This document shows, piece by piece, positions 1 through 16,393 of a stretch of DNA of 38,456 nt (position 1 is the first letter of the stretch; each line of letters starts with the position of its first letter). The stretch is from a virus. The stretch lies in IMG/VR virus record IMGVR_UViG_3300045988_124250; one strand, written 5' to 3'. Made by a program: the position numbers and the translations under genes. The notes beneath the pieces were generated by a model. It did not search any database, had not been told where the DNA came from, and was given only the letters and a program-made list of their open reading frames with translations.

Positions 1-28
1 AAAAATGAAATGAAAAATGAAATGAAAA

Positions 29-412
29 ATGAAAAATGAATTCAGTTATGATGTATTAAAAAATAAATATGGTAAGAGAGTTGGCAATTATAAAGGTAGA
101 GATGTAATTGTTCGTTCAAAGTATGATGATTTGGGCGATAATGTTTACGTCTTATATGATTGTAATAACGCTTTCATTGTTGATGGCTATTGGATTGCGA
201 ATATCAGTGAAGATGGTAATTTAAATCGTAAATGGGAATCACCTTGGAAAAAGCAAAAACGGGCCTCGGCGGCGGCCAGGCCACTAGCGTGTCCTGAGGG
301 TGATGAGAGTGGCGAGAATGATATTAACCTTGATGTTGATACGTCTCTTGCTGATTCTCTTCTGGAATCGGCGTATAATGACATTTTGAGTGATTTGATG
401 TTTAAGGAATAA
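29..412 (+). CDS. hypothetical protein; only plus-strand gene in the left half, convergent with the early operons
   Basis: 127 aa ORF ending in TAA, immediately followed by a hairpin plus T9 terminator. Preceded by an AAAAATGAAATG tandem repeat. The start may lie upstream of the window. Confidence 0.4.
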   Translation: MKNEFSYDVLKNKYGKRVGNYKGRDVIVRSKYDDLGDNVYVLYDCNNAFIVDGYWIANISEDGNLNRKWESPWKKQKRASAAARPLACPEGDESGENDINLDVDTSLADSLLESAYNDILSDLMFKE

Positions 413-418
413 AAAAAA

Positions 419-450
419 TGGAGTGGCGATAAACCACTCCATTTTTTTTT
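419..450 (+). terminator. intrinsic terminator, possibly bidirectional
   Basis: tggagtgg-cgataaa-ccactcca stem-loop flanked by A8 on the left and T9 on the right, directly after the stop of 29..412. Confidence 0.7.
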
Positions 451-451
451 G

Positions 452-485
452 ACTTATGATGCTTTTTAACTTATGATGCTTTTTT
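452..485. repeat. 17 bp tandem direct repeat ACTTATGATGCTTTTTA x2
   Basis: Two perfect adjacent copies seen directly in the sequence. They sit in a ~300 bp AT-rich non-coding stretch (452-760). Confidence 0.8.
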
Positions 486-822
486 TTGAGTCCGAAGTCT
501 TTTGATTATTGTTTTATCTCCATAAAACTAGATTAAATAAACCTATTAGCGGGGTTTGATGAATATAGTTGTAAATAACGAATAATGAAACCTTATAATA
601 TTTTTTCTTAATAACAAAATGATTATGGTAGAATGATAAAAACTTTGAAAGAAAATGATGGAAGTTTGGTGCCCCCGCTCGGTACCAACTCATCACTCAA
701 TTTCATCGTTGTCGTCATCCTCTGAATTTTTCAAGATACCCTTTCTAAAAAACGTCGAGCCCAGGTATTCTAATCGCCAATTTCCCAAATGAAAAATACC
801 TGGGCCGACACGTTATTCGAAA

Positions 823-1197
823 TTAAATGCGAGAAATCCAGTCGTTGATGATTTCATCAACGGTTTTGCCCTTCTTGGTGGGCTTATCAGTTCTCGTCTC
901 AAAACGAAAACCGGGAATCTCAATCTTGAAATTGTGAGGGTCCTTATAGAACTTCAAGAAACTGTCCATTACCTTAATGACGTCCTCGCCCTTCAACTCT
1001 GCGCCCTTATAGCCGACATAGGCCGCATAGTCGTTGATAGCATCGGCAACCGCTTCCGCTCGGGCCATCTTTTCCTTGTCCTTCTTCTGGTCAGCATATG
1101 CCTTAGTGGCGTCATTCAGCATTGCAGTCATTTCCTTAGCAATATCCTCAGCGCTCTCGCCATTCATTAAGCGCGTCAGAATATCGTTCTTATTCAT
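823..1197 (-). CDS. hypothetical early protein (124 aa)
   Basis: ORF with an AAAGAGG Shine-Dalgarno 8 nt upstream of the ATG at 1197. Preceded by three tandem sigma70-like promoters. TAA stop. Confidence 0.6.
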   Translation of the reverse strand: MNKNDILTRLMNGESAEDIAKEMTAMLNDATKAYADQKKDKEKMARAEAVADAINDYAAYVGYKGAELKGEDVIKVMDSFLKFYKDPHNFKIEIPGFRFETRTDKPTKKGKTVDEIINDWISRI

Positions 1198-1229
1198 TAA
1201 AATAACCTCTTTTCATTTTGTATATACAT

Positions 1230-1258
1230 ATTATACAAAAAATTTTTTTAAAAGTCAA
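1230..1258 (-). promoter_or_regulatory. sigma70-like promoter TTGACT-N17-TATAAT (class with AAAAATTTTTTG spacer)
   Basis: Minus strand reads TTGACTtttaaaaaaattttttgTATAAT. The predicted start lies ~25 nt upstream of the SD of gene 823..1197. Confidence 0.6.
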
Positions 1259-1285
1259 GTGAGAAAAAAAATGGTTTTTTTTATC

Positions 1286-1314
1286 ATTATAACATAAATT
1301 TTTTTTTATGTCAA
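1286..1314 (-). promoter_or_regulatory. sigma70-like promoter TTGACA-N17-TATAAT
   Basis: Minus strand reads TTGACAtaaaaaaaaatttatgtTATAAT. Confidence 0.55.
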
Positions 1315-1469
1315 ACCGGGCGGTATATGGGTACCGAGCGGCGCTCGGTTTTGGGATTTTTGGGGCGCATATGAAGGCCGCTAGAATTACGGAAAATTTT
1401 CCATATGGGGGTACAGATCGGGAATTCGGACCGCAGCGCCCGCGCTCGGCCCGTTGTACCTCCCCTTTT

Positions 1470-1498
1470 AGTATACCACACCTGGCCCAATTTGTCAA
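1470..1498 (-). promoter_or_regulatory. sigma70-like promoter TTGACA-N17-TATACT preceding a 150 nt GC-rich leader
   Basis: Minus strand reads TTGACAaattgggccaggtgtggTATACT. It would transcribe the GC-rich palindromic segment 1320-1465. Confidence 0.5.
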
Positions 1499-1499
1499 T

Positions 1500-1543
1500 A
1501 GGCAAAATGAACAAAAATTAAGGGTGGATTTCTCCACCCTTAA
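1500..1543 (-). terminator. intrinsic terminator after the HD-domain gene
   Basis: Minus strand: stop TGA, then hairpin AAGGGTGGA-gaaa-TCCACCCTT, then AATTTTTGTTCATTTTG. Confidence 0.6.
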
Positions 1544-1545
1544 TT

Positions 1546-2154
1546 TCAATCCTCCCACGGCAGGTCGGGCGAAATTTCGTCCAGTTCCGCCTTGTCGTTA
1601 TAGTCAGCGGTGATTGCCGGAATGTCGATAAACGCTCGACTTGCCACATAGTCAGCCATGTGTACCAGTCTGTCGATAGGAGTGAAAGGTCTGTCCGCCT
1701 TGTTGGTAGTCCACTGACCCATGTGGGACTTGATGGCTTGTGTCAACTCATAGGGGCAGTCGCTCTCGAAAAAGACCAGCCACGAACGGCGTACTTGGTC
1801 AGCCGCCATTTCCCCGTGCTTGGGGTACAACTCCTTGTCGAACTCGTGTAAACCATACTTGGCTGTATCGTGGAGCAGACAGGCAACTCTTGCGTAGTCC
1901 TTGCGCTCGTCAGTGAGATACGCCCACTGGCTCATGCGGAGCAATTCCTCACAAAACCACGCGACCGCCTTAGTGTGGCGTACCAAACCGCCCTCGCCTT
2001 GACTCATAGCCGGATGGAACTTACCGGAAGAACTTGCGCCGATAGTCCAGAAATAGTCGGGAACGATACAGTCGAAGTAATAGCGCATGAATGAGCGCAA
2101 ATCCTCGGACTGAATGAACTCGATTTCGTGGTCAAAAAACTGGCTCTTATTCAT
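1546..2154 (-). CDS. HD-domain metal-dependent phosphohydrolase
   Basis: Contains ...ACLLHDTAKYGLHEF... (HD motif). Start chosen at the internal ATG 2154 with a GGAGG SD. The track ORF extends to 2304 but would overlap the promoter and hairpin. TGA stop. Confidence 0.6.
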   Translation of the reverse strand: MNKSQFFDHEIEFIQSEDLRSFMRYYFDCIVPDYFWTIGASSSGKFHPAMSQGEGGLVRHTKAVAWFCEELLRMSQWAYLTDERKDYARVACLLHDTAKYGLHEFDKELYPKHGEMAADQVRRSWLVFFESDCPYELTQAIKSHMGQWTTNKADRPFTPIDRLVHMADYVASRAFIDIPAITADYNDKAELDEISPDLPWED

Positions 2155-2280
2155 AGATGCCTCCGTGCTGTTGGTGGGTTCCAGCTCCCTCAGATTGTTT
2201 ATAGTATAGCGCATTTCGGGACAAAATGCAATAGTCAATTTATACAAACTTTCGCCGGAAAAATTGTTGAAAATGTGTAT

Positions 2281-2350
2281 TGACAAAAATGCCGGGCGCC
2301 ACATTCGTGAGCGCTCGACCCATTATACCACAGTCAGAGGGCGTTGTCAA
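2281..2350. promoter_or_regulatory. palindromic promoter-hairpin element (A-element, copy lacking the left TATAAT)
   Basis: ttgacaaaaatgcc-GGGCGCC-acattcgtga-GCGCTCG-acccATTATACCAca...tgtcaa. The minus strand carries TTGACA-N17-TATAATGGG reading into the hairpin. Confidence 0.55.
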
Positions 2351-2377
2351 TAGTCAAATTAAATAAAAAAATTGCTC

Positions 2378-2719
2378 TCAATCGAGAGCAATTTGGTAAG
2401 TTCGACGAATGGTAATTTCAACAGATTTCGGCTTCACAGGACACGCAAATCTGTCATTTCTCACAAACACGCCGTATCCCTTTTTCTGCCAGTTCTCACG
2501 ATTTTTGTCCTCGTATCGCAAAGTGTTATACTTGGAGAGCGGTAGCGAAAAATCGTAAATAAATTCAGAATTGCGCGGTAAACGGTGAACGGCGGTTTTG
2601 CGGTAGTTCCTCGTGTGTTCCTGTTGTCTGCGCTTTAAGTCGTTAGTCGTGCCTATTTTCAGAATGTAGACACCATTTTCATCATAATAGTGTCCAACAT
2701 ACAAAAATTCCTTGTTTTT
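2378..2719 (-). CDS. small standalone GIY-YIG domain protein
   Basis: ...NGVYILKIGTTNDLKRRQQEH... matches the GIY-(10)-YIG..N..KRR..H nuclease motif. The protein has no internal Met. The probable GTG start has a GAGGA SD; the track ORF uses TTG at 2776. Confidence 0.45.
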   Translation of the reverse strand, partial: KNKEFLYVGHYYDENGVYILKIGTTNDLKRRQQEHTRNYRKTAVHRLPRNSEFIYDFSLPLSKYNTLRYEDKNRENWQKKGYGVFVRNDRFACPVKPKSVEITIRRTYQIALD

Positions 2720-2772
2720 CACACTTTTTTCCTCGATTTCCGGGGAAAATGGGGGATTTCTCCCCCATTTTC

Positions 2773-3171
2773 TCAACTTTTCGGCTTGCGCTTCTGCACA
2801 AGCGTCAGTTCATAGGAATTTTCACCAACTGAAAACGCAATCTGTCTCTCTTTGTTGGTAATTTCCACATTTTCACAGGCATTTTCGCTGTTTTCGGTCA
2901 AAAATGTTGCCAATTCAGCGATAATAGCCGCTTTCGTGGGATTTGCCTTGCGCTCTCTCGTGGTGAATTTGTATGCGGTGGGGGTCTTGCGTGTGCCAGT
3001 CTTGGCGAATTTTTGAGCGATTTTGAGCTGTTCTTTCGACAGGTCAAAATCCTGTTTCTTGCCCTTGTCGATTTCTCGGTCAGAGTTCCACACGGCTTCC
3101 GCTTCATCGGCAGTCCAGCCCATTTTCGCCATAGCGTTTTTCAGCCATTCGGTTTTGGAAATGTCAGCCAT
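2773..3171 (-). CDS. hypothetical protein, paralog of 5319..5675
   Basis: Shares ...TPTAYKFTTRERKANPTK... with PTAYKFAPRERKANLTK in 5319..5675. TGA stop. Confidence 0.55.
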   Translation of the reverse strand: MADISKTEWLKNAMAKMGWTADEAEAVWNSDREIDKGKKQDFDLSKEQLKIAQKFAKTGTRKTPTAYKFTTRERKANPTKAAIIAELATFLTENSENACENVEITNKERQIAFSVGENSYELTLVQKRKPKS

Positions 3172-3232
3172 AAAACACCGCCTTTTCAGATTTTAGGGGA
3201 GAGAGGGGGAGAGGTTATCTCCCCCTCTTGTC

Positions 3233-3652
3233 TCACTTGGCGGTGAAATACGCCTTGCGCTTATCCTCGATACGCTCTGCCAGACCGTCAATGACCATCT
3301 GACGCACCAGAGAGGAAACCTTCTGATTGGACGCATCGGCGATAGCGGGGACAGACTTCATCAGAGCGGAGACGGTGTACTTCTCGCCCTTGTGGGCGTC
3401 CAGGAACGCCTTGATGTCAGCCTTGATACCCTCGTTTGCCAGCTGGGTGGCGGTGGGCTTCTTGTCCACGGTGTTCTTGCGGTCGAGCAGTTCCAGCTCG
3501 TGGTTCAGGAAGCCCGCCACATCAGCACCGGAAACCTTGACAGTGGCATCGCCCTTGGGAATGTCATAAGTGGCGTCCATATCCACCTTGGACAGAATGG
3601 CGGTGAAGTAGTCGCGCTTGGTCAGGCGCACAGAGGAAGTAGTGTTAGTCAT
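3233..3652 (-). CDS. hypothetical protein, paralog of 5729..6109
   Basis: C-terminus ...SNQKVSSLVRQMVIDGLAERIEDKRKAYF matches SNQKLSSLVRQMVLDKQVERVEDKRKAFF. Start MTNTTSS with the conserved AAAGGGTTGATACT-ATG initiation region. Confidence 0.6.
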   Translation of the reverse strand: MTNTTSSVRLTKRDYFTAILSKVDMDATYDIPKGDATVKVSGADVAGFLNHELELLDRKNTVDKKPTATQLANEGIKADIKAFLDAHKGEKYTVSALMKSVPAIADASNQKVSSLVRQMVIDGLAERIEDKRKAYFTAK

Positions 3653-3720
3653 AGTATCAACCCTTTCTGCGTTTTTAGGTGTCGCCCACCATATTGTTGT
3701 TTCCCTCTTGGAACATCTAT

Positions 3721-3749
3721 ATTCTAACACATATCCGAAGCCTTGTCAA
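3721..3749 (-). promoter_or_regulatory. sigma70-like promoter TTGACA-N17-TAGAAT
   Basis: Minus strand TTGACA at 3749-3744 and TAGAAT at 3726-3721, proximal to gene 3233..3652. Confidence 0.5.
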
Positions 3750-3916
3750 GACTTTTTTTCGGATTTGTGGAATTTTTTTAAGGTACACGCCCCGCCGGAA
3801 GGTCTTACCCTCTCCCTTGGAACAATTATATATTACCACACCCTTGGGCAAATTACAATAGTCAATACTCACAAAAAATGGGATTTTCAACATCTAAAAT
3901 TTGTGCAAAAAAACAC

Positions 3917-4011
3917 TTGACAAAATTTGTGCCGCGTGGTATAATGGAAATTTCGGGCGCCACGTTCGTGAGCGCCCGACCCATTATACCACATTTGAGC
4001 GCATTTGTCAA
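3917..4011. promoter_or_regulatory. 95 bp perfect-architecture A-element: convergent TTGACA-N17-TATAATGG promoters on both strands around a 7 bp GC hairpin
   Basis: Plus: TTGACA(3917)-17-TATAAT(3940)-GG-aaatttc-CGGGCGC-cacgttcgtga-GCGCCCG-accc-ATTATA(3983)-17-TGTCAA(4006). The whole unit is an extended inverted repeat. Confidence 0.65.
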
Positions 4012-4017
4012 TAGGCA

Positions 4018-4058
4018 AAATACACAAAAATAAACCAGCGTAGTTGGCTACTACGCTG
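4018..4058 (-). terminator. intrinsic terminator
   Basis: Minus strand hairpin AACCAGCGTAGT-agcc-AACTACGCTGGTT followed by TATTTTTGTGTATTTTG. Confidence 0.6.
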
Positions 4059-4384
4059 GTTCCCCTGTTGATGTTCGCCAGCCGTCCGGACAGCCAGCCC
4101 ACTTCTACACAGCAGACCCAAAACCGGGGCGCAAAGCCCATTATGGAGGGGTCTTTCTCGGCACGCGGTGAATGTGGTTAGAACTTCGTACCCAGTCCCA
4201 ATTTCTAACGAGAGGTTCAAGATGGCGGTTGAGAAGAAATTATTGAGTGGGACAAACACTCTATTAAACTCCATCTTGGCTGGGGCATAAATATAATCAA
4301 TCATTAAACTATCTAATCAAACAATGATTGACTACTAAGGTGGTCGATACAATCGCCATTTCATTTTTCTCACCTCACAATGTT

Positions 4385-4420
4385 AGTATAGCACAGGCGG
4401 AGCGGTTTGTCAAGAGTTTT
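4385..4420 (-). promoter_or_regulatory. sigma70-like promoter TTGACA-N17-TATACT flanked by CTCTTGACA inverted repeat
   Basis: Minus strand reads ctcTTGACAaaccgctccgcctgtgcTATACT. It heads a ~330 nt minus-strand transcript (4388 to 4060) with no credible ORF. Confidence 0.5.
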
Positions 4421-4422
4421 TT

Positions 4423-5103
4423 TCAAAATTCTAACTCGTCCTGAACGCCATAGCCAGAGAAATCGAGGATAACAGGAGAAATGCCAATGTATCCAATGTT
4501 TGAGCCGTGGAGGTCGTTTATGTGATACTTCTTGACGAACTCACAGAGGGCGATAACCTTGCGCTTACCGTAGAGGGAAACGGCGACTTTTGCCCACAAT
4601 CCATCGAGGTCGCGCCCATAGCCATTTTGGTCTGCCTTGCGGAACTGTCGCTCAATCTGATTAACTCGGCAGTCAGGAACAGTCTTTGCGATACGGACGA
4701 GACGCCCTTGCAGTCCGCCCTCTGCCCAGCAGATTTTATGAGCACTGTTAGTAATAATCTGTTGAGCAGTGAACGCAATCGCTTCACCATCACGAGGGGA
4801 GACAATGTAGCCAGCCAACATAGTGGCGGGGAAAAAATCGGCGAGGTTGGCGTCTACGGCTTTCTGATACACAGCCACTTCCCGCTCTGCGTCCCGCGTC
4901 TCCATAGACCATTTGAGAACATAGCCCAATTCAGGGAACACCAGACATTCCTTGGTCGCACCGTTGCTGGTGACTATCTTGACATTAGGATATTCGTTGT
5001 GAATAACGCGACACAAATCGTCAGCGCACTTGACCAGTCTCGGCTTTTCAGATACCGCCTGCTGAATGGTCAGGATAAAATCCTGAACTCTCGGAAACTC
5101 CAT
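4423..5103 (-). CDS. hypothetical early protein (226 aa)
   Basis: AAGGAG SD 8 nt before the ATG at 5103. TGA stop. No motif recognised. Confidence 0.6.
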   Translation of the reverse strand: MEFPRVQDFILTIQQAVSEKPRLVKCADDLCRVIHNEYPNVKIVTSNGATKECLVFPELGYVLKWSMETRDAEREVAVYQKAVDANLADFFPATMLAGYIVSPRDGEAIAFTAQQIITNSAHKICWAEGGLQGRLVRIAKTVPDCRVNQIERQFRKADQNGYGRDLDGLWAKVAVSLYGKRKVIALCEFVKKYHINDLHGSNIGYIGISPVILDFSGYGVQDELEF

Positions 5104-5179
5104 CGTTCATCGCTCCTTTCAGTATCATCATTATAACACATTACAGGAGAATTACAATAGGTAAAATGCACAAAATTTT

Positions 5180-5276
5180 GCGGAAAAAATTTCTGAAATT
5201 GTATAATGTGCCGAAAACCGGGTGCCAGGACCGTAAGCGCCCGGCCGATTATACCACACGCGCTCTGATTTGTCAA
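5180..5276. promoter_or_regulatory. A-element copy
   Basis: TATAAT(5202)...CCGGGTGCC-aggaccgtaa-GCGCCCGG...ATTATA(5248)-17-TGTCAA(5271). The minus-strand promoter drives 4423..5103. Confidence 0.55.
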
Positions 5277-5318
5277 TAGGTAAAAATGCATAAAAAAAAT
5301 GAGGGAGATTTCTCTCCC

Positions 5319-5675
5319 TCACTTGCGCGGACACGACAGCACAACCTTGTATTTTGTTCCATCAAGCGTGAATAAAAATTCGCGCTCCGCGTTGCTCATG
5401 TTCAGGTCAGTCGCGCCGTATGTGGTCAGTGTCTCGGTCAGCAAGGTGATAATGCCCTGCTTCGTGAGATTAGCCTTTCTTTCTCTTGGTGCGAACTTGT
5501 ATGCGGTCGGCTGGCGTCCTACTCCACGCGCTTTCTTGCTTGCCTTTTCCTGTTCCTCGGTCAGCGGAAACGGATTGCCGCCCTTGTCGATAATAGCATC
5601 TTGGACAATAATATCCTTGGCTTCGGCTTCGGTGCAATCCAGCTTTCGCATAAGGTCGGCAATACGCTCATTCAT
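5319..5675 (-). CDS. hypothetical protein, paralog of 2773..3171
   Basis: Start MNERIADL with an AAGGAG SD. TGA stop. Confidence 0.55.
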   Translation of the reverse strand: MNERIADLMRKLDCTEAEAKDIIVQDAIIDKGGNPFPLTEEQEKASKKARGVGRQPTAYKFAPRERKANLTKQGIITLLTETLTTYGATDLNMSNAEREFLFTLDGTKYKVVLSCPRK

Positions 5676-5728
5676 GCGCTTACTCCTTTCGGGGATAGGG
5701 TGGGGATTTCTCCCCACCCTTGGGCGGT

Positions 5729-6109
5729 TTACTCGCTCACCTTGCGGAAGAACGCCTTGCGCTTATCCTCCACGCGCTCCACCTGCTTGTCCAGCACCAT
5801 CTGCCGAACGAGGGAGGACAGCTTCTGATTGCTCATGTCCTTGCAGACGGGGAACTCTTTGAGCATCTCGCTGATGGAATACAGGCGGTCGCGCTCCATA
5901 GCGGACAGGACAGTGGTCTTGATGACCTCATTCTCCTGCTGGGTCTTGGTGGGCTTCTTGTCCACGGTGTTCTTGCGGTCGAGCAGGTCGATTTCGTGGG
6001 TGATGAACTCCACCAGCTTGGGGTCAGCCTTAACCTCGGACAGTTTCAGCAGGGCGGTGAAATTGTCGCGCTTGGTGGGCTTGCGGGTGGTGGTGTTAGT
6101 GTTAGCCAT
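5729..6109 (-). CDS. hypothetical protein, paralog of 3233..3652
   Basis: Start MANTNTTT with the AAAGGAATTGATACT-ATG initiation region. TAA stop. Confidence 0.6.
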   Translation of the reverse strand: MANTNTTTRKPTKRDNFTALLKLSEVKADPKLVEFITHEIDLLDRKNTVDKKPTKTQQENEVIKTTVLSAMERDRLYSISEMLKEFPVCKDMSNQKLSSLVRQMVLDKQVERVEDKRKAFFRKVSE

Positions 6110-6149
6110 AGTATCAATTCCTTTCTCCATTTGGTTTTGAGGGCTTTGC

Positions 6150-6750
6150 CCTCCTGACATTATCTATTATAACAGCTTGCGCTGGGATTGTCAAGAGTTT
6201 TTTTCAAAATTCTTGATTTTTTTTGATAGTGCCAACAGGGGAACGCTCCACAAGTATTCACAACGACTTACTGCCCCGACCTGACGGATAAAGTCTTGCC
6301 GTGTTATTGCGTCGCAGTCCGGTTAGAGGTTCCGGTCTGTCCCTTGCTCACATCATGCTCATTTTCCGTTCAACGTATGGCCTTACCGCGCTGGTGTAGG
6401 GCCTACTTCCTTTACTTTCGCACGGTTCGCGACCCGCGGATTTCTTGGGTGGGGCTGTTCCCCTCTTGACATTATCAATTATAACACAGGTGCTGGGGAT
6501 TGTCAAGAGGTTTTTTGAAATTTTTTCAAATTTCTGAAACCTGTCTACATAGGTGACACATTAGACGCATCTGCCGTGCCATTCCCCTCTTGACATTATC
6601 CATTATAGCACAGGTGCTTGGGATTGTCAAGAGGGAAAATGCGGGTCAGTTACCGAGTTATCACACCCGCCAGCGTGGCTCTTGCGAGGCGACTTGCTGT
6701 TCCCTCTTGACATTATGTAGTATAACACAGGTAGGCATGGATTACAATAG
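6150..6750 (-). repeat. array of four tandem ~50 bp promoter repeats (CTCTTGACA-N29-TGTCAAGAG inverted-repeat units) with ORF-free spacers
   Basis: Units lie at ~6150-6200, 6455-6512, 6585-6640 and 6700-6750. Each reads on the minus strand as ctcTTGACA-atccc(a/c)agcacctgtg(t/c)-TATAAT; the last copy is degenerate. No ORF of 60 aa or more on either strand between 6160 and 6945. Confidence 0.6.
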
Positions 6751-6805
6751 GTAAACTATACAAGTTTCGGGAAAAATAAATAAAAAAATTTGTGCAAAAA
6801 AACTC

Positions 6806-6900
6806 TTGACAAAATTGCTGACGGGGTGTATAATGGTGAATTCCGGCCGAGACGCGCGAAATCGGCCGGCCATTATACCACACCCAGGCGCATTTGTCAA
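6806..6900. promoter_or_regulatory. A-element copy with a different hairpin sequence but the same architecture
   Basis: TTGACA(6806)-17-TATAAT(6829)-GG-...CCGGCCGA-gacgcgcgaaa-TCGGCCGG...ATTATA(6872)-17-TGTCAA(6895). The stem sequence differs from A3, so the stem-loop is maintained as structure rather than as primary sequence. Confidence 0.6.
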
Positions 6901-6945
6901 TAGGTAAAAATGCATAAAAAATGAGGGGAAAATCCCCTCATTTTT

Positions 6946-7479
6946 TTAGTCTATCTGACAAGCGAGAAATGCGTCCCGCTTTTCGTTCAGGTTTGCGATT
7001 TCGCCCGCCAGCGCGTCAGCCCTCATAGCCAACAGACGCCCATAGCCCTTGCGCCAGTTCAGCATACCAGCGGGATTGACCGTGTAAATAAGCTTCTCCT
7101 TTTCCACGGTCTTGGTGTCCTTGCGCTCAACGCGGAAGTCCTGACCATTCAGAGCCAGCAGAGCGGACTGTGCCACTTCCGGCAAACGCATCCAGTTGTA
7201 CTCGGTCATCAGGGCGTTGCCATTCTTGTCAATCATCCAGCTTTCCGCGTCCCACGGGTCGAGCTTGATTTCCTTGGTGGTCTGTTCGGTGCGTACCACC
7301 TTAATGATACCCTCGTCCCGCAGGAACGACAGGGAATTGTAGGTGTACCGCCGGTAGTCGTGCTTTGCTTTGGAGAAGTCCTCGGAAGTGAACTCCTTGT
7401 TTCCGAACAGGTCTACCAGCCATTTGTAGGTCTTGACCGTGCGGTTGAAATTTCTGAGGTTAGCATAGCGAGCTTTCAT
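6946..7479 (-). CDS. hypothetical early protein
   Basis: Start MKARYANLRNF with a GAAAAGGAG SD. TAA stop. Confidence 0.55.
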   Translation of the reverse strand: MKARYANLRNFNRTVKTYKWLVDLFGNKEFTSEDFSKAKHDYRRYTYNSLSFLRDEGIIKVVRTEQTTKEIKLDPWDAESWMIDKNGNALMTEYNWMRLPEVAQSALLALNGQDFRVERKDTKTVEKEKLIYTVNPAGMLNWRKGYGRLLAMRADALAGEIANLNEKRDAFLACQID

Positions 7480-7592
7480 AGTTTTTTCTCCTTTTCTATT
7501 GGTGGGGCTTACCATCGTTTCCCCTACCTTGAATTTGTAATGTTATTATAGCATGGAATGGGGGCGTTGTCAACCCCCATTCCAAACTTTTT

Positions 7593-7808
7593 TTACGGGG
7601 TGTCGTGCTTGCGGTATTCAGTCAGGTCAGGGTCGCCAATCCATTCGGAAAAATCAACCCAATAGTCGAACACATGGAGAATTTCGATTTCATCAGGTTC
7701 AAACACCCCGCCACAACAGGCGCAGATTACAAAACCGTTTTCAAGCTGAATACCAGCTTGAACACCATCGGAATGGTCGCCCTTAAAAAGCACTTGCTTA
7801 ATAGGCAT
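7593..7808 (-). CDS. small Cys-containing protein (71 aa)
   Basis: AAGGAGG SD. Contains ICACCGGVFEP. Confidence 0.5.
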   Translation of the reverse strand: MPIKQVLFKGDHSDGVQAGIQLENGFVICACCGGVFEPDEIEILHVFDYWVDFSEWIGDPDLTEYRKHDTP

Positions 7809-7875
7809 TTCGCTTACCTCCTTGTCTTAGTATAGCCATTATACCACATGAGAAAGGGGCTGTCAAGCCCCAATC

Positions 7876-8532
7876 TCAAAACTTGGGAAAACATTTTACC
7901 TCAAAGGGCGCGTCCCATGCGTGGACATTCTTGGTGTATCGCTTGTGCATCTTCTGACAGGCAAGGAAAATTTCCATTTCCTGCATAGCGTCAGACAGGG
8001 CGGTGTGTTCTTCCTCAAAGTCAGGATTGCCGTGGAGATAACCATACACCGCTTCGACAGAGGTTGCACAGGTCTTGCCATTCTTGGAACGCTTGCCATG
8101 TTCTCGGCAGTATTCCGCGTAGGATTTCTTGTGGGTGATAGTTTCCAGTGCCATGAGATACAGGTCGATGAACTCGAAAGTGTCCAGCAGGTCGCGGAAA
8201 CAGGTCTTGCAGAAGTCAAAACCGGAATTGTACGCCATCACATAGCGAACGCCGTAATGGTCGCACAGGTTTTTGATTACCTCATAGGCTTCGCGCTCCG
8301 TGGCGATAGCGGAGATTTCGCCAGCTTTGAGCCGTTCGGCATACTTGGGAAAATTCTTCTTGGCATAGCCATCGGTGGCGATTTCGTCATAATGCTCCAT
8401 CACCAGCAGGGAAGTGGTGGCAAGGATTTCGCCCTTGCGGTCGTGGATAATCGCGCCCACATTATACATTCCCGTGGGGTGAGCCGCGCCGCCTACCGTT
8501 TCAGTGTCCAGCGTGCAGTAGATATTTTTCAT
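7876..8532 (-). CDS. DEDDy-type 3'-5' exonuclease (DnaQ-like)
   Basis: Exo I LDTETVG, Exo II MAYNSGFDF and Exo III YLHGNPDFEEEHTALSDA motifs. AAAGGAG SD. TGA stop. Confidence 0.7.
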   Translation of the reverse strand: MKNIYCTLDTETVGGAAHPTGMYNVGAIIHDRKGEILATTSLLVMEHYDEIATDGYAKKNFPKYAERLKAGEISAIATEREAYEVIKNLCDHYGVRYVMAYNSGFDFCKTCFRDLLDTFEFIDLYLMALETITHKKSYAEYCREHGKRSKNGKTCATSVEAVYGYLHGNPDFEEEHTALSDAMQEMEIFLACQKMHKRYTKNVHAWDAPFEVKCFPKF

Positions 8533-8645
8533 TGTTCATTCTCCTTTTCTCTTGGTTGGGCTTACCATCGTGTCCCATACCTTAATTACATTACATATTA
8601 TAGCAAATAGGGGCGAGATTGTCAACCCCTATTTGCTATTTTTTT

Positions 8646-9092
8646 TTACAGGTTTCGCAGGATTTCCATAAGCAGGTCGGCATTATATGCCATATTGTGG
8701 GTGTTTGCCGTCCACTCGTTGAGATTGCGCTGTTCATCATCGAACAGAATAGACGCGGGGCAGGTGGCGCAGGTGGATTTGGGGACGCCATAGGGGACAA
8801 TATGGATTTCGTCCCACTGAACGCTGGGGAGATGCTTTGCCAGCCAGTCGCGCTTGACCTCGGCAACCTCGGCATTGAACTTATCCGTTCCGCTCTTGGA
8901 CAGCCAGCTGATGATGCCGATATTGTAGCCCCGCGCCTGTAAGCGGTTCAGATAGCGGGCGAGGGTGGAGAGGTTCACAAGGGGCTTTGCCACACGATAT
9001 GGTGTGCTGTCCTGTGCTTCGAGGCACTCCAACCAGTTGGGGACGCCGTAAAAATCAATCACCGTCCCATCGAGATCGAGGTAAATAGTCAT
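8646..9092 (-). CDS. HAD-superfamily phosphatase, possibly a 5'(3')-deoxyribonucleotidase
   Basis: N-terminal YLDLDGTV (DxDGT) and later FDDEQRN (DD motif). GAAGGAG SD. TAA stop. Confidence 0.6.
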   Translation of the reverse strand: MTIYLDLDGTVIDFYGVPNWLECLEAQDSTPYRVAKPLVNLSTLARYLNRLQARGYNIGIISWLSKSGTDKFNAEVAEVKRDWLAKHLPSVQWDEIHIVPYGVPKSTCATCPASILFDDEQRNLNEWTANTHNMAYNADLLMEILRNL

Positions 9093-9156
9093 ACTTTTTG
9101 TCTCCTTCGTTTTATTGTATTTACATTATAACGCCTATTCTCCTATTTGTCAAGAG

Positions 9157-9900
9157 TTATTTTACAAATTCCCAAAATAATTTTTCACCCGTATCAGGGT
9201 CTACTCCCGCGCTTTTACGCTCTCCTTTCAAACATTTACTAATGTTGCTTTGTGGAACGCCATAGTATCGAGCCGCCGCTGATTGAGACTCAAATACACG
9301 ATTAGTAGTTAAACAAATTACTGCTTTACTATTAGCAATACTTCCAGCCTTTCGCCATTCATTTACTTGTGCTTGGTGCTCTTCTGGATGTTCTTGTTGC
9401 CATTTTTCTTTTGCCTGATTTAATCTTATTACTTGTTGTTTAACGAGTTCAGGATTTTCTTTTAATCGCTTATGACTTGCTTCTAACATTGGCTTAATAC
9501 ATTTTTCTTTGTATTCTTCTGGATGAGTATCACACCATTTCCGCAAATGTTCCCCATTTCGTTTATACATGGCTTGCGCTTCTTCTGGATGTTGTTCCAG
9601 CCATCTTTGACAACTGCGCCAGCCGTCTCCACCTGTGCCACCTTCCGCATTATTATAAAAATTATCATCATTTACTGCGTTGTATAATTGGATGTATTCT
9701 CGTTCTTTTGCGTCGGCTTCTTCTCTTGTTTCACAAAAACACAAAACACTTTTAGTAAAATTCTCCTTGCCATACTTGCTAATTGCTTTTAGTATAGTTG
9801 TTCCACTACCTAAATAGTTATCGTCTGGGCGTCCTTTGTGCTATCCAATGTATTGTTTGCCGTTAATTTTATTTGTTGTTATGTAAACGTAATAGTCCAT
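9157..9900 (-). mobile_element. freestanding GIY-YIG homing endonuclease gene (Seg/I-TevI-like) containing an in-frame TAG at 9841-9843
   Basis: MDYYVYITTNKINGKQYIG-(TAG)-HKGRPDDNYLGSG... followed by a C-terminal NUMOD-like AVICLTTNRVFESQSAAARYYGVPQSNISKCLKG. The gene is AT-rich (~35% GC) inside ~50% GC DNA and has its own TTGACA-N17-TATAAT promoter at 9936-9964. Confidence 0.6.
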
Positions 9901-10032
9901 TTTTAGACCATCCTTCCATCTATGTCATTGATATTATTATACAAAAAATTTTTAGAATTGTCAAATTTTCGTTGGTTATTTCGCACAAACTTTCGGGATG
10001 CGCACTTGGTCAAATTTGTTCAATTTACCTAT

Positions 10033-10126
10033 TGACAAAATTGCTGGCAGGGTGTATAATGGAAATTTCGAGCGCCAGGGCCGTGGGCGCTCGGCCGAGT
10101 ATAGCACAAATAGGGGCGTTTGTCAA
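10033..10126. promoter_or_regulatory. A-element copy
   Basis: TTGACA(10033)-16-TATAAT(10055)-GG-aaatttc-GAGCGCC-agggccgtg-GGCGCTC-...AGTATA-17-TGTCAA(10121). Confidence 0.55.
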
Positions 10127-10177
10127 TAGGTAAAATGAACAAAAAAAATCTCCCAAATTTGGGAGATTTTTCAATTA

Positions 10178-10384
10178 TTACTTCTTGACAGTGATGCTGA
10201 AAATAGAGCGTAGGAGTGCGATAATGAGCCAAATGACCAACGCCAGTTTCCACGAAAACACGATGGCGATAGAGCCGATGGACGCGATGCCAATCATAGG
10301 GAGAAGCCAGCAGAGAAGCCAGACCAGCCCAGCAGTAAACAGGAACGAAATGCCAAGGGCAATAACCATTATCAGAATAGTAAT
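10178..10384 (-). CDS. small two-TM membrane protein
   Basis: MITILIMVIALGISF... with an AGAGAGGTG SD. TAA stop. Confidence 0.45.
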   Translation of the reverse strand: MTILIMVIALGISFLFTAGLVWLLCWLLPMIGIASIGSIAIVFSWKLALVIWLIIALLRSIFSITVKK

Positions 10385-10388
10385 CATT

Positions 10389-10586
10389 TTATTCACCTCT
10401 CTTAAATACGATGGTTTTGTGTGTGGTAAAGGTTGCTCCACGAACAAGCGGGTCATTTGCCAGGTCATTTGCGATGAACGACAGAGTTTCGTTTTCGTCC
10501 TTGAACCACTCGCTATTAGTGAAGCGTTCGCCCCAAGTGGTTATGCCCCACCACTCAACATTGTAGTACACATCTTTGATTTCCAT
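10389..10586 (-). CDS. hypothetical small protein (65 aa)
   Basis: MEIKDVYYNVEWWG... with an AAGGAGG SD. Confidence 0.5.
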   Translation of the reverse strand: MEIKDVYYNVEWWGITTWGERFTNSEWFKDENETLSFIANDLANDPLVRGATFTTHKTIVFKRGE

Positions 10587-10599
10587 TGTCGCGCCCTCC

Positions 10600-10749
10600 T
10601 TAGTAGATTTGTTCGCCGTTATGGTAGCGTTCGTATCTCGCTTCAAGGAAGTCGAGAATGAACTCGAAGTCGTCCGCGTCCGCGGGGTCTACGAACGTCT
10701 TTTCAAGGATTTCGCCAGTGTGGTCATTGAAAACTTTAATCATTTCCAT
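10600..10749 (-). CDS. hypothetical small acidic protein (~49 aa)
   Basis: MEMIKVFNDH... with a GGGAGG SD. Confidence 0.4.
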   Translation of the reverse strand: MEMIKVFNDHTGEILEKTFVDPADADDFEFILDFLEARYERYHNGEQIY

Positions 10750-10815
10750 TTTGTTGTCCTCCCTTATTTGATGATACCATTCTAACACAGAGGGGCTGAT
10801 TTGTCAACCTCTATT

Positions 10816-11295
10816 TTACAGATTTTTGCTTTCTGCTACGAAATATTTTGCGCCATACTGCGCCACAATGTCCTTGACCTTTTTGCTCTCGGCTTGCGTG
10901 GCACAATAGAAATTGAATAACGTGTGTTTGTTGCTAATCTCAATGTATGAGTGGGGAATGTCTCGCAGGTCAAAATCAACAGCGGCACGATACTTTGTGG
11001 GGACAGTCATTTCAATCTTCCACAATTTTTCCTTGCGCGCCAACTCCTCCACCCATTTGACCGCCAGCACGCCGATGAAATTACAGGCGGCGGTAATGCC
11101 CATCTTTGCCAGCGTAGAAACGCCGTCAATGTTGGTCAGGATAATGACATAGGAATAGAAGCCATAGGTCAGCGCATTGATACCAGCGGCTACCCACTTA
11201 TTGCCTTTAACAGTCAAAATGGATTTGATGGTGGACAGCACCACATTCACAGCGGTACAGATAATGAATAGAATAATTGCGTTCATAGTCATCAA
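10816..11295 (-). CDS. membrane protein with 3 N-terminal TM helices plus a soluble domain
   Basis: 159 aa with a GGGGAGGA SD. No motif recognised. Confidence 0.55.
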   Translation of the reverse strand: MMTMNAIILFIICTAVNVVLSTIKSILTVKGNKWVAAGINALTYGFYSYVIILTNIDGVSTLAKMGITAACNFIGVLAVKWVEELARKEKLWKIEMTVPTKYRAAVDFDLRDIPHSYIEISNKHTLFNFYCATQAESKKVKDIVAQYGAKYFVAESKNL

Positions 11296-11492
11296 TCCTC
11301 CCCGAACATAGCTTCCGCCAACCAGTACATAGATGTGCGCAGGTGAGACTGGATTTCAAACAAATCATCACTCAAATTTTGAGCGGCTTGCTTGTCCTCG
11401 CTGTTGGACAGGTTTTTCTTTTCTGCGGCGATTTCGATTGACAGTTGCTCCAACTCATTAGCAACTTGTTTCAGCTTAGAGGGGATGTTCAT
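11292..11492 (-). CDS. hypothetical coiled-coil protein (66 aa)
   Basis: Start MNIPSKLKQ with the conserved AAAGGAATTGATACT-ATG region. TTGACA-N17-TATTAT promoter at 11524-11552. Confidence 0.5.
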   Translation of the reverse strand: MNIPSKLKQVANELEQLSIEIAAEKKNLSNSEDKQAAQNLSDDLFEIQSHLRTSMYWLAEAMFGED

Positions 11493-11638
11493 AGTATCAA
11501 TTCCTTTCTTAATTTCTATTATAATAATAACACATTTATTTGAAAATGTCAAGAAAAATTTTTGCCGTAGTTAAATTCTCACAGGATTAGTTTTTTGTTC
11601 CGTGTAGTTAGTCAGAACTAAACCTGACAAGAGGGGCG

Positions 11639-12010
11639 TTAATGCCCCTCCGTCAGTTTGTTATACATACTCCATAAGGTATCACAGGAATTGTTTGTGT
11701 TTTCAGCCATCCATACAATTTGTTCATCAGTCGGCAGGTATTTATCATCTTGAAAACCAAACCATCTATCACAGGATTGGTATGCCTTATACTCGTCCTC
11801 TGTCAGCTTGCCACGCAACCGCCAATCCCAGCGGATAGAACTTATCAGAGTATACGCGCATGCGCCCGCGATAGTCAGGGTCAGAATGGCGACAGCCGCA
11901 TACAGCACGAATGTGGATTTGAACATACCATACACCAGCAGGATAAAACCACACAGAATGAGGAAATTGCGCGCCCATTTTTTGAGCGTCAGTTTCTGAA
12001 AATCAGACAT
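11639..12010 (-). CDS. membrane protein (2 TM)
   Basis: AAGGAG SD. The C-terminal domain is paralogous to 12025..12201. Confidence 0.55.
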   Translation of the reverse strand: MSDFQKLTLKKWARNFLILCGFILLVYGMFKSTFVLYAAVAILTLTIAGACAYTLISSIRWDWRLRGKLTEDEYKAYQSCDRWFGFQDDKYLPTDEQIVWMAENTNNSCDTLWSMYNKLTEGH

Positions 12011-12024
12011 TGTTCTTACTCCTT

Positions 12025-12412: not shown

Positions 12413-12518
12413 AATACATACCTCCTTGTTTCAGTATAGCCATTGTACTACATTACGGGATAGAAGTCAATCGTCAAAATGCACAAAATTGCGGCGAAAA
12501 ATTTGTGAAGTATACCTA

Positions 12519-12570
12519 TTGACAAAAATGCCGGGCGCCACATTCGTGAGCGCGCGGCCGAAAATGTCAA
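12519..12570. promoter_or_regulatory. truncated A-element (hairpin between TTGACA and TGTCAA, no -10 copies)
   Basis: TTGACAaaaatgCCGGGCGCCacattcgtgaGCGCGCGGccgaaaaTGTCAA. Confidence 0.4.
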
Positions 12571-12626
12571 GTGGAAAATTATACAAAAATTGGGCTGGAT
12601 TTTTGTTCATCCAGCCCAAATGATTT

Positions 12627-14358: not shown

Positions 14359-14455
14359 CTTGACAAATTGGCTGGGCTGTGGTATAATGGAATTTCCGCG
14401 CATCAGGGCCGTAGACGCGCGGCCAAAATTATACCATAAAAATGCTATTTTGTCA
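14359..14455. promoter_or_regulatory. A-element copy
   Basis: TTGACA(14359)-17-TATAAT(14382)-GG-aatttCCGCGCatcagggccgtagacGCGCGG...ATTATA(14427)-17-TGTCAA(14450). Confidence 0.55.
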
Positions 14456-14494
14456 ATAGTCAAAATACACAAAAAAAATGAGCCAAATTTTGGC

Positions 14495-15378: not shown

Positions 15379-15474
15379 TTGATAAAATTGCTGGGACATG
15401 GTATAATGGTAAATTTCGCGCGCCAGGACCGTGGGCGCGCGACCGAGTATAACACAAATGGGGCAGAATGTCAA
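15379..15474. promoter_or_regulatory. A-element copy
   Basis: TTGATA(15379)-17-TATAAT(15402)-GG-taaatttCGCGCGCCaggaccgtgGGCGCGCG...AGTATA-17-TGTCAA(15469). Confidence 0.55.
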
Positions 15475-16283: not shown

Positions 16284-16345
16284 TTGACAACTGGTGGACT
16301 GCTGTGGTATAATATTTCGGAGCGCCACGTGCCTAATGAGCGCGA
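16284..16345 (+). promoter_or_regulatory. plus-strand TTGACA-N18-TATAAT promoter facing antisense into 16394..16582, a diverged A-element
   Basis: TTGACA 16284-16289 and TATAAT 16308-16313, followed by a GC hairpin-like segment and the TTAAAATTTTAACAAT motif shared with the 17.3-18.0 kb region. Confidence 0.4.
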
Positions 16346-16393
16346 CGATGCTCGTTAAAATTTTAACAATCCAACAGTAAAAAAATAGGACGC

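Follow-up and report, generated by a model that had tools for sequence, protein, structure and literature searches.

The promoter pairs Pe/Pc of phage P2 and pR/pL of phage 186 stand face to face, overlap and interfere with each other. Lambda OOP, P22 sar and the Bacillus subtilis prophage antitoxin RNAs RatA and SR4 are short cis-antisense RNAs that end at a shared terminator, and M13 ori(-) and ssoA are single-stranded-DNA priming hairpins. Frpo of F-like plasmids is a single-stranded-DNA promoter (PMC11541004). Overlapping promoters compete and convergent promoters interfere, by mechanisms that are reviewed in PMC6593788. Bacterial RNA is stabilised by a 5'-terminal stem-loop or by a ribosome bound near the 5' end (PMC3997798, PMC7509114; likewise in a passage of PMC5737220), and the ompA leader is a stabiliser of the stem-loop kind (Emory et al. 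1992, as cited in PMC3997798 and PMC7509114). T4-type phages carry promoter-early stem-loop (PeSL) cassettes (PMC2839356, PMC4122927).

The window, meaning the whole stretch of 38,456 nt that was analysed, comes from an uncultivated gut phage with a tail, a double-stranded DNA genome, portal and virion genes, a TAG-recoded late region and an 18-kb early region in which every gene lies on the minus strand. Its early region repeatedly contains a module which, when complete, consists of two near-consensus promoters placed face to face across a 25-27-bp GC palindrome: an antisense promoter (P_A) on the plus strand and a sense promoter (P_B) on the minus strand. Its members are five complete modules, a further module whose plus promoter has decayed, a copy with the plus promoter alone and two deletion derivatives (E values are those of a covariance model made of -10 box, 8 nt and hairpin):

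3917..3945, plus strand: P_A of module 1, antisense promoter, TTGACA-N17-TATAAT with TG extension, 12/12 match
3940-3983, plus strand: covariance-model match of module 1, E = 1.3e-10
3953..3979, either strand: GC stem-loop of module 1 (TCGGGCGCCACGTTCGTGAGCGCCCGA), 7 nt past the P_A -10 box and 3 nt past the P_B -10 box
3983..4011, minus strand: P_B of module 1, sense promoter opposite P_A, 12/12 match
4032..4062, minus strand: canonical terminator of the preceding minus-strand unit, just upstream of module 1 P_B, 13-bp stem and T-tract
6806..6900, both strands: module 2, with P_A 6806-6834 (plus), hairpin 6843-6869 and P_B 6900-6872 (minus), E = 3.5e-11
6916-6946: bidirectional terminator of module 2, 70 nt past the hairpin, predicting an RNA of ~105 nt
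10032..10126, both strands: module 3, with P_A 10032-10060 (plus), hairpin 10069-10093 and P_B 10126-10098 (minus, TATACT), E = 1.1e-8
10143-10172: bidirectional terminator of module 3, 72 nt past the hairpin
14360..14456, both strands: module 4, with P_A 14360-14388 (plus), hairpin 14396-14422 and P_B 14456-14428 (minus), E = 2.7e-8
14300-14272: proximal gene promoter after module 4, followed by a ribosome-binding site
15379..15474, both strands: module 5, with P_A 15379-15407 (plus, TTGATA), hairpin 15416-15442 and P_B 15474-15446 (minus, TATACT), E = 3.8e-13
15320-15292: proximal gene promoter after module 5
5180..5276, both strands: module with decayed P_A (TATAAT 5202-5207 without a -35 box), hairpin 5218-5244 and P_B 5276-5248 (minus), E = 0.0033
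5157-5130: proximal promoter after the module at 5180..5276
16284..16348, plus strand: P_A-only copy, with promoter 16284-16313 (18-nt spacer), imperfect hairpin and no opposing promoter
2281..2350, both strands: deletion derivative in which the P_A -35 box abuts hairpin 2293-2317, followed by P_B 2350-2322 (minus)
12519..12570, both strands: deletion derivative with hairpin 12532-12556 between two inverted TTGACA boxes and neither -10 box

An earlier, sequence-only reading had counted at least eight well-formed copies, of which five prove to be fully formed. The elements lie where it placed them, apart from small shifts in two copies (10033 becomes 10032, and 14359-14455 becomes 14360-14456). 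At 5180-5276 it was right about the minus promoter and the hairpin, while the plus promoter is decayed, with 10 nt between its -10 box and the stem and one G-T pair in the plus strand; the same P_A is equally decayed in the relative L035. The copy it gave as 16284-16345 retains its plus promoter and an imperfect hairpin (weak covariance-model match at 16308-16348) and has no facing promoter. The copy at 2281-2350 keeps its minus promoter and hairpin (weak match at 2286-2322; one G-T pair, plus strand), with P_A reduced to the -35 box, and the supposed truncated form at 12519-12570 (match at 12525-12561, E = 0.05) is indeed only a hairpin and two inverted -35 boxes. These two share the same hairpin, with TTGACAAAAATGC directly abutting, and are deletion derivatives of one another. 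The variant proposed at 1320-1465 is not a member of the family; what lies there is a different GC-rich leader, of greater length, downstream of promoter 1498-1470. Four modules are followed by a 'TCCCGAAAnTTGT' motif, for the most part the usual A/T element ahead of the following promoter.

Like the P2 and 186 pairs, the module sets what would be strong promoters against each other with predicted starts tens of base pairs apart, an arrangement in which promoters compete, occlude or collide; unlike in those pairs, the predicted starts are only ~25 bp apart, which implies competition and not collision. The module further differs from them in its number (at least five copies per genome, in a lytic-type early region), in having one promoter without a gene behind it and no flanking repressor genes, and in having its overlap filled by a covarying GC stem-loop with no conserved operator sequence. 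Classical switch-type promoter pairs with divergent genes are also present in IMG/VR. With OOP, sar and the type I antitoxin RNAs the module shares a strong opposite-strand promoter at the 3' end of a gene, a predicted non-coding transcript and overlap with the terminator or 3' end of the target, several copies having a bidirectional terminator. It is distinguished from them by its many copies behind unrelated genes, which nothing indicates to be toxins or regulators; the spacing between its -10 box and a conserved 5' stem-loop is constant, and a sense promoter often faces it.

The resemblance to the ompA type of stabiliser lies in a stable hairpin that stands within a few nucleotides of the predicted RNA start and is confined to transcripts without a start-proximal ribosome-binding site; here, by contrast, one palindrome would serve two opposed transcripts and its loop is partly conserved. 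PeSL cassettes, too, are repeats that pair a sigma-70-like promoter and the A/T-rich stretch ahead of it with a neighbouring stem-loop; they lie beside small orphan genes in an early region of high plasticity, and copies recombine with each other, as one chimeric module in phage contig L063 appears to have done. A PeSL, however, has one promoter, and its stem-loop is a terminator placed ahead of that promoter, a part that is filled in the window by ordinary terminator-plus-promoter units; the module has in addition an inverted promoter and, downstream of the two promoters, a hairpin that is not a terminator. Frpo, M13 ori(-) and ssoA resemble the module as palindromes whose arms could pair through their -35 and -10 boxes around a mismatched spacer, but the module's arms are not co-adapted, many copies have one arm only and the genome is that of a double-stranded-DNA tailed phage.

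The convergent near-consensus promoters noticed on both strands stand far above chance. A 31-nt promoter pattern allowing at most three mismatches has 49 matches against 6.7 +/- 2.6 in shuffles, and 24 perfect 12/12 promoters lie within 19 kb. The best six plus-strand promoters in 1-18 kb all adjoin a hairpin, and five of these six stand opposite a minus promoter whose -10 hexamer is 36-39 nt from their own. As regards the sequence requirement for convergent-promoter interference, modules have consensus boxes at a -10 to -10 distance of 36-39 nt. In the window the covariance model has six matches at E < 0.004 plus four that are weaker; every one is on the plus strand within 1.4-16.4 kb, with nothing comparable in the late region. 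Judged by their boxes, the module promoters are of the type read by host RNA polymerase (sigma-70/sigma-A). Across 33 two-promoter modules from the wider set of phages, P_A has TATAAT in 33/33 and TTGACA in 32/33 with a variable mid-spacer, boxes held constant around a free spacer pointing to a promoter-type constraint; P_B has TTGACA in 33/33.

Spacing to the hairpin is also fixed across phages, at 7-9 nt from the P_A -10 box to the stem and 2-4 nt from the P_B -10 box. Start sites were predicted from the usual spacing of ~7 nt after the -10 box. With the stem ~8 nt past the P_A -10 box, all of it would be transcribed from P_A, while the 2-4 nt on the other side would put the minus start inside the stem. 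The sequence-only reading had the minus promoter read into a stem-loop at +1; by its spacing the hairpin is placed for the plus promoter. P_A is the more constant partner and P_B is optional, being absent from 10 of 45 distinct copies; half-modules with P_A only occur in L093, L077, L113, L048 and at window position 16284, and those with P_B only in L029 (11921), L064 (8509), L093 (4128) and L114 (10783).

Module stems are 8-9 bp long with folding energies of -14 to -20 kcal/mol; that of module 1 reaches -19.8 kcal/mol on either strand (z = -4.2 and -5.2). In an alignment of 41 distinct sequences made with a covariance model fitted to the structure, from a seed picked for pairing, 97.2% of cells are paired, six of the eight pairs are changed on both sides and 72 cells carry double changes (24.9 +/- 3.4 in shuffles), slid controls being 27-43% paired. 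The compensatory changes expected on aligning more copies are therefore present, and the claim that the hairpin varies in sequence while keeping its pairing and position, which implies selection on structure, is borne out. Among the copies of a single genome, five of the eight stem positions show joint two-sided changes (CG, GC, UA). Positions G3, C6 and G7 and their partners are nearly invariant; in the loop on the P_A strand, G12, C15 and G16 are conserved, which a merely protective hairpin does not need. Nothing points to an RNA anti-CRISPR that mimics a solitary host repeat, and the varied stems and 9-11-nt loops are unlike a single CRISPR repeat family. Non-Watson-Crick pairs are rare, with one G-U and two A-C in the model alignment (about three against three by eye), too few to tell which strand is under structural selection, and the structure may have been selected as a DNA-level hairpin.

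On the sense strand the flank of the stem reads AAATTTCC, on the P_A strand (A/G)CC-ATTATA, and no T-tract follows the module hairpins on either strand. They have the GC-rich stem-loop of an intrinsic terminator without the U run after the stem, and none is among the 37 terminator-like sites called, which include the true terminators adjoining them. The module had been described as separate from the usual terminator-plus-promoter unit, and this holds, since the latter lies just upstream of a GC hairpin without T-tract.

P_A is antisense to the local open reading frames in 43 of 45 distinct model matches, a result also checked with frames supported by a ribosome-binding site, and no frame with such a site lies behind it. 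The sequence AAAGAGG after the hairpins of L093 was considered as a ribosome-binding site through which P_A would drive genes; what it forms is the upstream terminator's stem, and in L093, too, P_A points antisense. Modules lie just after the terminator or stop codon of the upstream gene; in module 1 the terminator at 4032..4062 has no T-tract on the plus strand. The minus promoter had been assigned to early mRNAs, and it is sense-directed, without being the gene's sole promoter: a second, gene-proximal promoter with an adjacent ribosome-binding site usually lies 60-250 nt downstream of P_B. The 17 minus promoters in the window that have a ribosome-binding site and a start codon 28-33 nt past the -10 box carry no hairpin, and every hairpin-bearing minus promoter in the window is at least 144 nt from the next start codon. 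The RNAs predicted from P_A fold into two hairpins, one at the 5' end and one at the terminator, joined by an open linker (z = -3.0 to -6.0). By a strict rule, a terminator occurs within 130 nt of the P_A hairpin at 27 of 76 promoter-hairpin sites, with a sharp class 70-73 nt past the hairpin in many copies, including modules 2 and 3; with a terminator near only about one-third of copies, a defined small RNA is not general.

Searching for the element in related phages, as the sequence-only reading had advised, recovered a family of 45 distinct covariance-model matches on ~25 phage contigs. No published description of a module combining the promoter pair and the hairpin was found. In megablast and blastn searches of 50,697 phage records the sole match was phAss-1 (OQ749652; 51-135 bp), whose paper mentions neither promoters nor hairpins and in which an annotated CDS overlaps one module. 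When genome contigs were scanned for P_A with hairpin, no more than five loci turned up, on four taxonomically mixed MAG contigs that are probably mis-binned phage and so allow no host assignment. Other phage contigs have the equivalent architecture around an unrelated A/T-rich hairpin, a recurrence which suggests a general solution and not a quirk of one lineage. A tRNA or non-coding RNA array, suspected from the jump in GC content, was ruled out by an empty tRNA and tmRNA scan of the window. Rfam 15 gave nothing at gathering score in the window, and the module RNAs had only chance-level matches to terminator-containing sRNA models (E >= 0.13).

The explanation to which we give about an even chance, arrived at from sequence, is that the module places a 5'-terminal stem-loop on untranslated transcripts, namely a short antisense RNA and a long-leader mRNA, whose two promoters compete for one site. 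Of the candidate roles raised earlier, the two that fit best are production of antisense RNA by the plus promoter and stabilisation by a hairpin at the 5' terminus. The palindrome would encode a stem-loop at the extreme 5' end of the transcript of either promoter. The non-coding P_A RNA would start 0-3 nt before the hairpin and run back across P_B and the terminator of the preceding gene, ending at ~105 nt where that terminator works bidirectionally and otherwise continuing antisense into the gene's 3' end. P_B would start within the stem and yield an mRNA with a leader of at least 144 nt for the next gene. In both cases the stem-loop may protect RNAs that have no ribosome near the 5' end from 5'-end-dependent decay. 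If both promoters fire from the predicted starts, only ~25 bp apart, two polymerases could not occupy both, and transcription from P_A would cross P_B and meet read-through from the upstream gene, so that the module may tune or insulate the adjoining early transcription units while yielding a cis-antisense RNA. A stabiliser shared by both transcripts leaves the asymmetry of 8 nt against 3 nt unexplained, because the P_B transcript loses 3-5 nt of the stem, and stabilisation does not account for the presence of the antisense promoter.

Other explanations were weighed as well. One is that the whole palindrome acts as a single folded strand, either as an RNase III stem, as in the ~25 bp interrupted stem proposed earlier, or, after the manner of Frpo, M13 ori(-) or ssoA, as a promoter or priming hairpin in single-stranded DNA. 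Read-through RNA does fold into long structures (3892-4040, -59.6 kcal/mol, z = -7.2; 6782-6930, -47.7 kcal/mol, z = -4.8) in which the -35 and -10 boxes of both arms would pair. However, the arms of a module match only at promoter consensus positions, and their identity within a module equals that between modules at every segment (0.28 against 0.25 in the mid-spacer), which makes the long stem a by-product and not a selected fold. The P_B -10 variants TATACT and TAAAAT are never compensated in P_A, the second arm is missing from the 10 copies without P_B, read-through is limited by the terminator that precedes the module, and the genome is that of a tailed phage with double-stranded DNA. The arm-independence test rules out a Frpo-like promoter, and together with the uncompensated -10 variants it largely refutes folding as one strand, which is barely credible. 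Only slightly more credible, and still highly improbable, is an operator at which a dimeric phage or host DNA-binding protein closes both promoters; the palindrome covers both predicted start sites, an ideal operator position, and G3, C6, G7 and their partners hardly vary, but a protein reading half-sites would hold sequence and not complementarity at the five positions that co-change, and the loop conservation lacks dyad symmetry. Very unlikely, too, is a non-canonical pause or termination signal at which polymerase from P_A stalls or releases on P_B, or which backs up the upstream terminator against sense read-through. The complement of the P_B -10 box, AUUAUA, does stand 2-4 nt past the stem in the position of a U-tract, pairing by Watson-Crick rules only would suit an element read from both sides, and for the lambda pair P_R/P_RE it is documented that pausing enhances the occlusion of a convergent promoter (PMC6593788). 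Against this, no module hairpin passes the terminator scan or has a T-tract on either strand, P_A-only copies keep the hairpin without a following AUUAUA, and canonical T-tract terminators are used throughout the region, from which the host polymerase appears to need T-tracts.

Recombination between repeated DNA cassettes, as in PeSLs, would make the palindrome a homology or cruciform target and the inverted promoter a relic of inverted duplication. [quoted passage not shown] This chimera is the single case of inter-copy recombination, and apart from it close relatives show no presence/absence polymorphism of modules. Orthologous modules of close relatives do carry different hairpins (window 10069-10093 against L035). 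Homology requires neither covariation nor fixed spacings of 8 nt and 3 nt to two -10 boxes, perfect P_A consensus in diverged phages with variable spacers and the strict antisense orientation are not expected of a relic, and the PeSL stem-loop is a terminator upstream of its promoter, whereas here it lies downstream of both promoters without a T-tract; we consider shuffling unlikely as the function. Somewhat better placed, if still rather doubtful, is a trans-acting small RNA gene, composed of P_A, hairpin and terminator, whose product would bind or titrate a protein or RNA of host or phage, P_B being incidental. P_A and hairpin are the most constant part and stand without P_B in 10 of the 45 distinct copies, the loop shows asymmetric conservation of G12, C15 and G16 (P_A strand) although the stems diverge, and the fold of 5' hairpin, open linker and terminator is sRNA-like, the predicted RNA in L093 being just two hairpins in ~70 nt. 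Yet paralogous stems differ so widely that a partner would have to read shape and three loop bases, many copies lack a nearby terminator, Rfam offers no match, and a P_B at consensus, fixed 2-4 nt from the stem, is unexpected if incidental.

Less probable than the preferred reading of competing promoters and 5' stem-loops is one in which the P_A units make up an unrecognised family of phage small-RNA genes. Each unit would join a host promoter of perfect consensus to a 5' stem-loop whose loop is semi-conserved, and often to a bidirectional terminator that is shared. The RNAs, stable and either antisense or hairpin-forming, would build up during infection and may serve as a timer that shuts off or insulates early units, or else titrate a host factor. 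The predicted starts are G-rich for P_B and A-rich for P_A. In Bacillus, the identity of the first transcribed nucleotide can control promoters, and by analogy the two starts could form a switch that reads host nucleotide or growth state.

From the module one would expect mutual interference between two starts that lie ~25 bp apart, and an RNA of ~105 nt. Should either the interference or the hairpin RNA prove to have a function, nature would here offer a compact way to insulate transcription units that are tightly packed, and strong promoter and 5' stabiliser parts for Gram-positive synthetic biology as well. The phages concerned belong to a large group of uncultivated, stop-codon-recoded phages from gut samples, whose early regions carry systematic antisense promoters, a regulatory layer that is invisible to gene-centred annotation.

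Re-inspection of the window confirmed palindromic modules at the positions at which the sequence-only reading had placed them. Along the minus (gene) strand, the stop of a gene and a canonical terminator come first, then sense promoter P_B with an A/T-rich upstream element, a GC stem-loop beginning 2-4 nt past the P_B -10, the complement of the facing plus-strand promoter P_A with its own upstream element (P_A -10 at 7-9 nt from the far side of the stem), an A/T-rich spacer of 30-60 nt and usually another minus-strand promoter, directly in front of the next gene and its ribosome-binding site. In this order the module is an inserted cassette, with an ordinary terminator before it and the ordinary promoter of a gene after it. 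At least eight well-formed copies had been counted, of which five are complete, the remaining ones being decayed or partial.

Modules and derivatives in the window (P_A on the plus strand, P_B on the minus strand)
3917-4011, complete module 1
6806-6900, complete module 2
10032-10126, complete module 3
14360-14456, complete module 4
15379-15474, complete module 5
5180-5276, module with decayed plus promoter
16284-16348, P_A-only copy with imperfect stem
2281-2350 and 12519-12570, deletion derivatives with one common hairpin

The stretch 1320-1465, previously taken for a variant, is instead a different structured leader: GC-rich, about 150 nt long, at 1316-1468 (-) between promoters 1498 and 1314, and with a high degree of predicted structure (-50.9 kcal/mol).

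The window is part of a tailed phage, with portal and virion genes (PHROG 2739, 2729, 4088) on the plus strand at 20.4-37 kb. These are interrupted by in-frame TAG codons, the portal gene at 25451, 25508 and 25709; six late-region ORFs (1567 aa) gave way to 15 contiguous ones (5212 aa) once TAG was read as sense, the equivalent reading of TGA changed none of them, and the late genes at 20400-37100 (+) are TAG-recoded. TAG is hardly used in the early region (1-18200), and GC content is about 45% there (1-18.2 kb) vs about 30% in the late part, a step that coincides with the early/late boundary. Among 50,697 phage records, the sole DNA match was a short stretch of phAss-1, which is listed under 'code 15 clade'. 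All early-region ORFs with a ribosome-binding site lie on the minus strand, most genes there are followed by canonical hairpin-plus-T-tract terminators, and about 40 near-consensus TTGACA-N17-TATAAT promoters carry a TG extension; the promoter pattern is seven-fold commoner in the window than in shuffles. The six best plus-strand promoters of the early region are all hairpin-associated, and a covariance model built on the layout '-10, 8 nt, hairpin' found ten sites in the window, all on the plus strand of the early region. No tRNA, tmRNA or Rfam family was found in the window.

Other elements occur in the window. A palindromic 20-mer, ATTGTTAAATTTTTAACAAT, occurs in nine copies clustered at 16351-18005, where the early region starts, and one of these copies lies directly behind the P_A-only copy at 16284-16348; the cluster looks like an operator array or origin-like repeat. 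A second promoter subclass, which has AAAAATTTTTTGTATAAT at the end of its A/T spacer, sits at the divergent early/late junction, ahead of late genes and ahead of a homing-endonuclease gene; it may form a temporal class of its own.

Promoters of the AAAAATTTTTTGTATAAT spacer subclass
1258-1230 (-)
9964-9936 (-)
20311-20283 (-)
20367-20395 (+)
36511-36539 (+)

The I-HmuI/NUMOD-like HNH endonuclease gene (9157-9744, minus strand) lies beside module 3 within 9093-9972, a segment that looks like a mobile insertion; close relatives L035 and L063 lack both the gene and its promoter. A conserved leader of about 60 nt is common to two genes (8597-8532 and 7545-7479), a repeated leader, GATAATGTCAAGAGGGGAA, follows three promoters (6602-6510, 6478-6200, 6166-6110), and the unit bounded by promoter 4413 and terminator 4062-4032 (4385-4032) holds no convincing ORF; all of these may be non-coding RNAs or riboregulators.

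The search in related phages recovered the element. Two facing consensus promoters in the exact pattern occur at more than 116 IMG/VR loci, where base composition would give, by a back-of-envelope estimate, well below one match; among the matches listed, the same GC-hairpin module is present at about 25 loci, often several times. In about 0.94 Mb of facing-promoter loci among the matches listed, the covariance model gave 50 hits, which reduce to 45 distinct copies with flanks and 41 distinct aligned rows; it gave further matches on four MAG contigs that bear mixed taxonomic labels and are probably phage. Other facing-promoter families are of switch type between divergent genes (L025, L011, L004, L021 and others), or carry an A/T-rich hairpin, 3 nt from the sense and 6 nt from the antisense promoter, between same-strand genes (L017, L026, L054, L085, L087, L109; also L050, L056, L073, L088). 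In phAss-1 (OQ749652; L001), an annotated plus-strand CDS (6002-6946) among minus-strand genes starts upstream of a facing-promoter module (6018-6110) and runs through it; this CDS is probably a mis-call.

That the hairpin varies in sequence while keeping its pairing was borne out by compensatory changes in the model alignment: 97.2% of 321 stem cells are paired, six of eight pairs show two-sided changes, double-change cells number 72 vs 24.9 +/- 3.4 in shuffles and the covariation score is 0.561 vs 0.163, values from related copies in an alignment fitted to the model with a seed picked for pairing. The seed alignment agrees, sliding the partner by 1-3 columns lowers pairing to 27-43%, and stems differ even between orthologous modules of close relatives (window 10069-10093 vs L035 2226-2269). 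Judged from these alignments, the stem is under selection for pairing. Non-Watson-Crick pairs are nearly absent (one G-U, two A-C), so the strand cannot be read from the stem; loop positions G12, C15 and G16 (27-mer, P_A strand) are conserved asymmetrically.

The promoter arms behave otherwise. In 33 two-promoter modules, P_A and P_B were as alike within a module as between modules in every segment (-35, 0.99 and 0.99; mid-spacer, 0.28 and 0.25; -10, 0.94 and 0.94), and the P_A -10 is always TATAAT (33/33) while that of P_B is TATAAT in 21, TAAAAT in six and TATACT in six, without compensation in P_A. The long interrupted read-through hairpin is thus a by-product of facing promoters, which largely removes the case for the RNase III-type processing site suggested earlier; arm independence also rules out a single-stranded-DNA promoter.

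Of 45 distinct copies, 43 have P_A antisense to the ORFs around it, with a sense coding length of zero in most (ORFs with a ribosome-binding site), and 35 have P_B. P_A-only copies lie 3-10 nt past the terminator or stop codon of the upstream gene (L093, L077, L113), and the converse, a sense promoter 2-4 nt from a hairpin but lacking P_A, also occurs (L029, L064, L093, L114). Many copies, including modules 2 and 3, have a terminator usable on the P_A strand 70-73 nt past the hairpin, giving a predicted P_A RNA of about 105 nt that would fold into two hairpins, one at the 5' end and one at the terminator, joined by an open linker; in other copies, antisense transcription from P_A would enter the upstream gene. 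None of the 17 minus promoters in the window with a start codon 28-33 nt away has a hairpin, and all hairpin-bearing ones have leaders of at least 144 nt. Transcription usually starts about 7 nt past a -10, and the polymerase footprint spans -55 to +20. The -10 hexamers of P_A and P_B are 36-39 nt apart, which places the predicted start sites about 25 bp apart, and the 5' ends of the two transcripts would overlap across exactly the hairpin.

The simplest account that we infer combines stabilisation with promoter competition. Three papers describe a 5' stem-loop or 5'-proximal ribosome as shielding bacterial RNA from 5'-end-dependent decay (PMC3997798, PMC7509114, PMC5737220), and the stem-loop would be such a 5'-terminal structure on the two transcripts that have no ribosome close to their 5' ends: the P_A RNA, which is non-coding, and the P_B mRNA with its long leader. 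A single palindrome would serve both strands, which would explain why its distance to each -10 box is fixed and why the stems are strictly Watson-Crick. The hairpin geometry would also make P_A and P_B mutually exclusive, and P_A transcription would run over P_B and against read-through (for such mechanisms, see PMC6593788). Stabilisation and competition do not account for the presence of an antisense promoter, the 8 nt vs 3 nt stem spacing or the conserved loop bases; jointly, these points keep alive the alternative of the P_A unit as a small-RNA gene whose product acts in trans.

The module would work similarly to face-to-face promoter switches and short cis-antisense RNAs (OOP, sar, type I antitoxins), carries an apparent counterpart of a 5' stabiliser and appears to recombine as PeSL cassettes do (PMC2839356). 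A chimeric copy at L063 7216-7347 combines a P_A matching that of the window 14360 copy with a hairpin and P_B matching those of the 15379 copy, and L063, compared with window 14360-14493 and 15379 onwards, has no counterpart of 14494-15378, which points to recombination between modules. The module nevertheless belongs to none of these families: its hairpin is not a terminator, as it has no T-tract; a PeSL would, in addition, have its hairpin on the other side; and a developmental switch is ruled out by the lack of a gene behind P_A and by the covarying stem. No published description was found in the literature searched. The module is real and conserved, occurs in multiple copies in uncultivated gut phages and is a new arrangement of known kinds of parts, with a putative regulatory function predicted from sequence.
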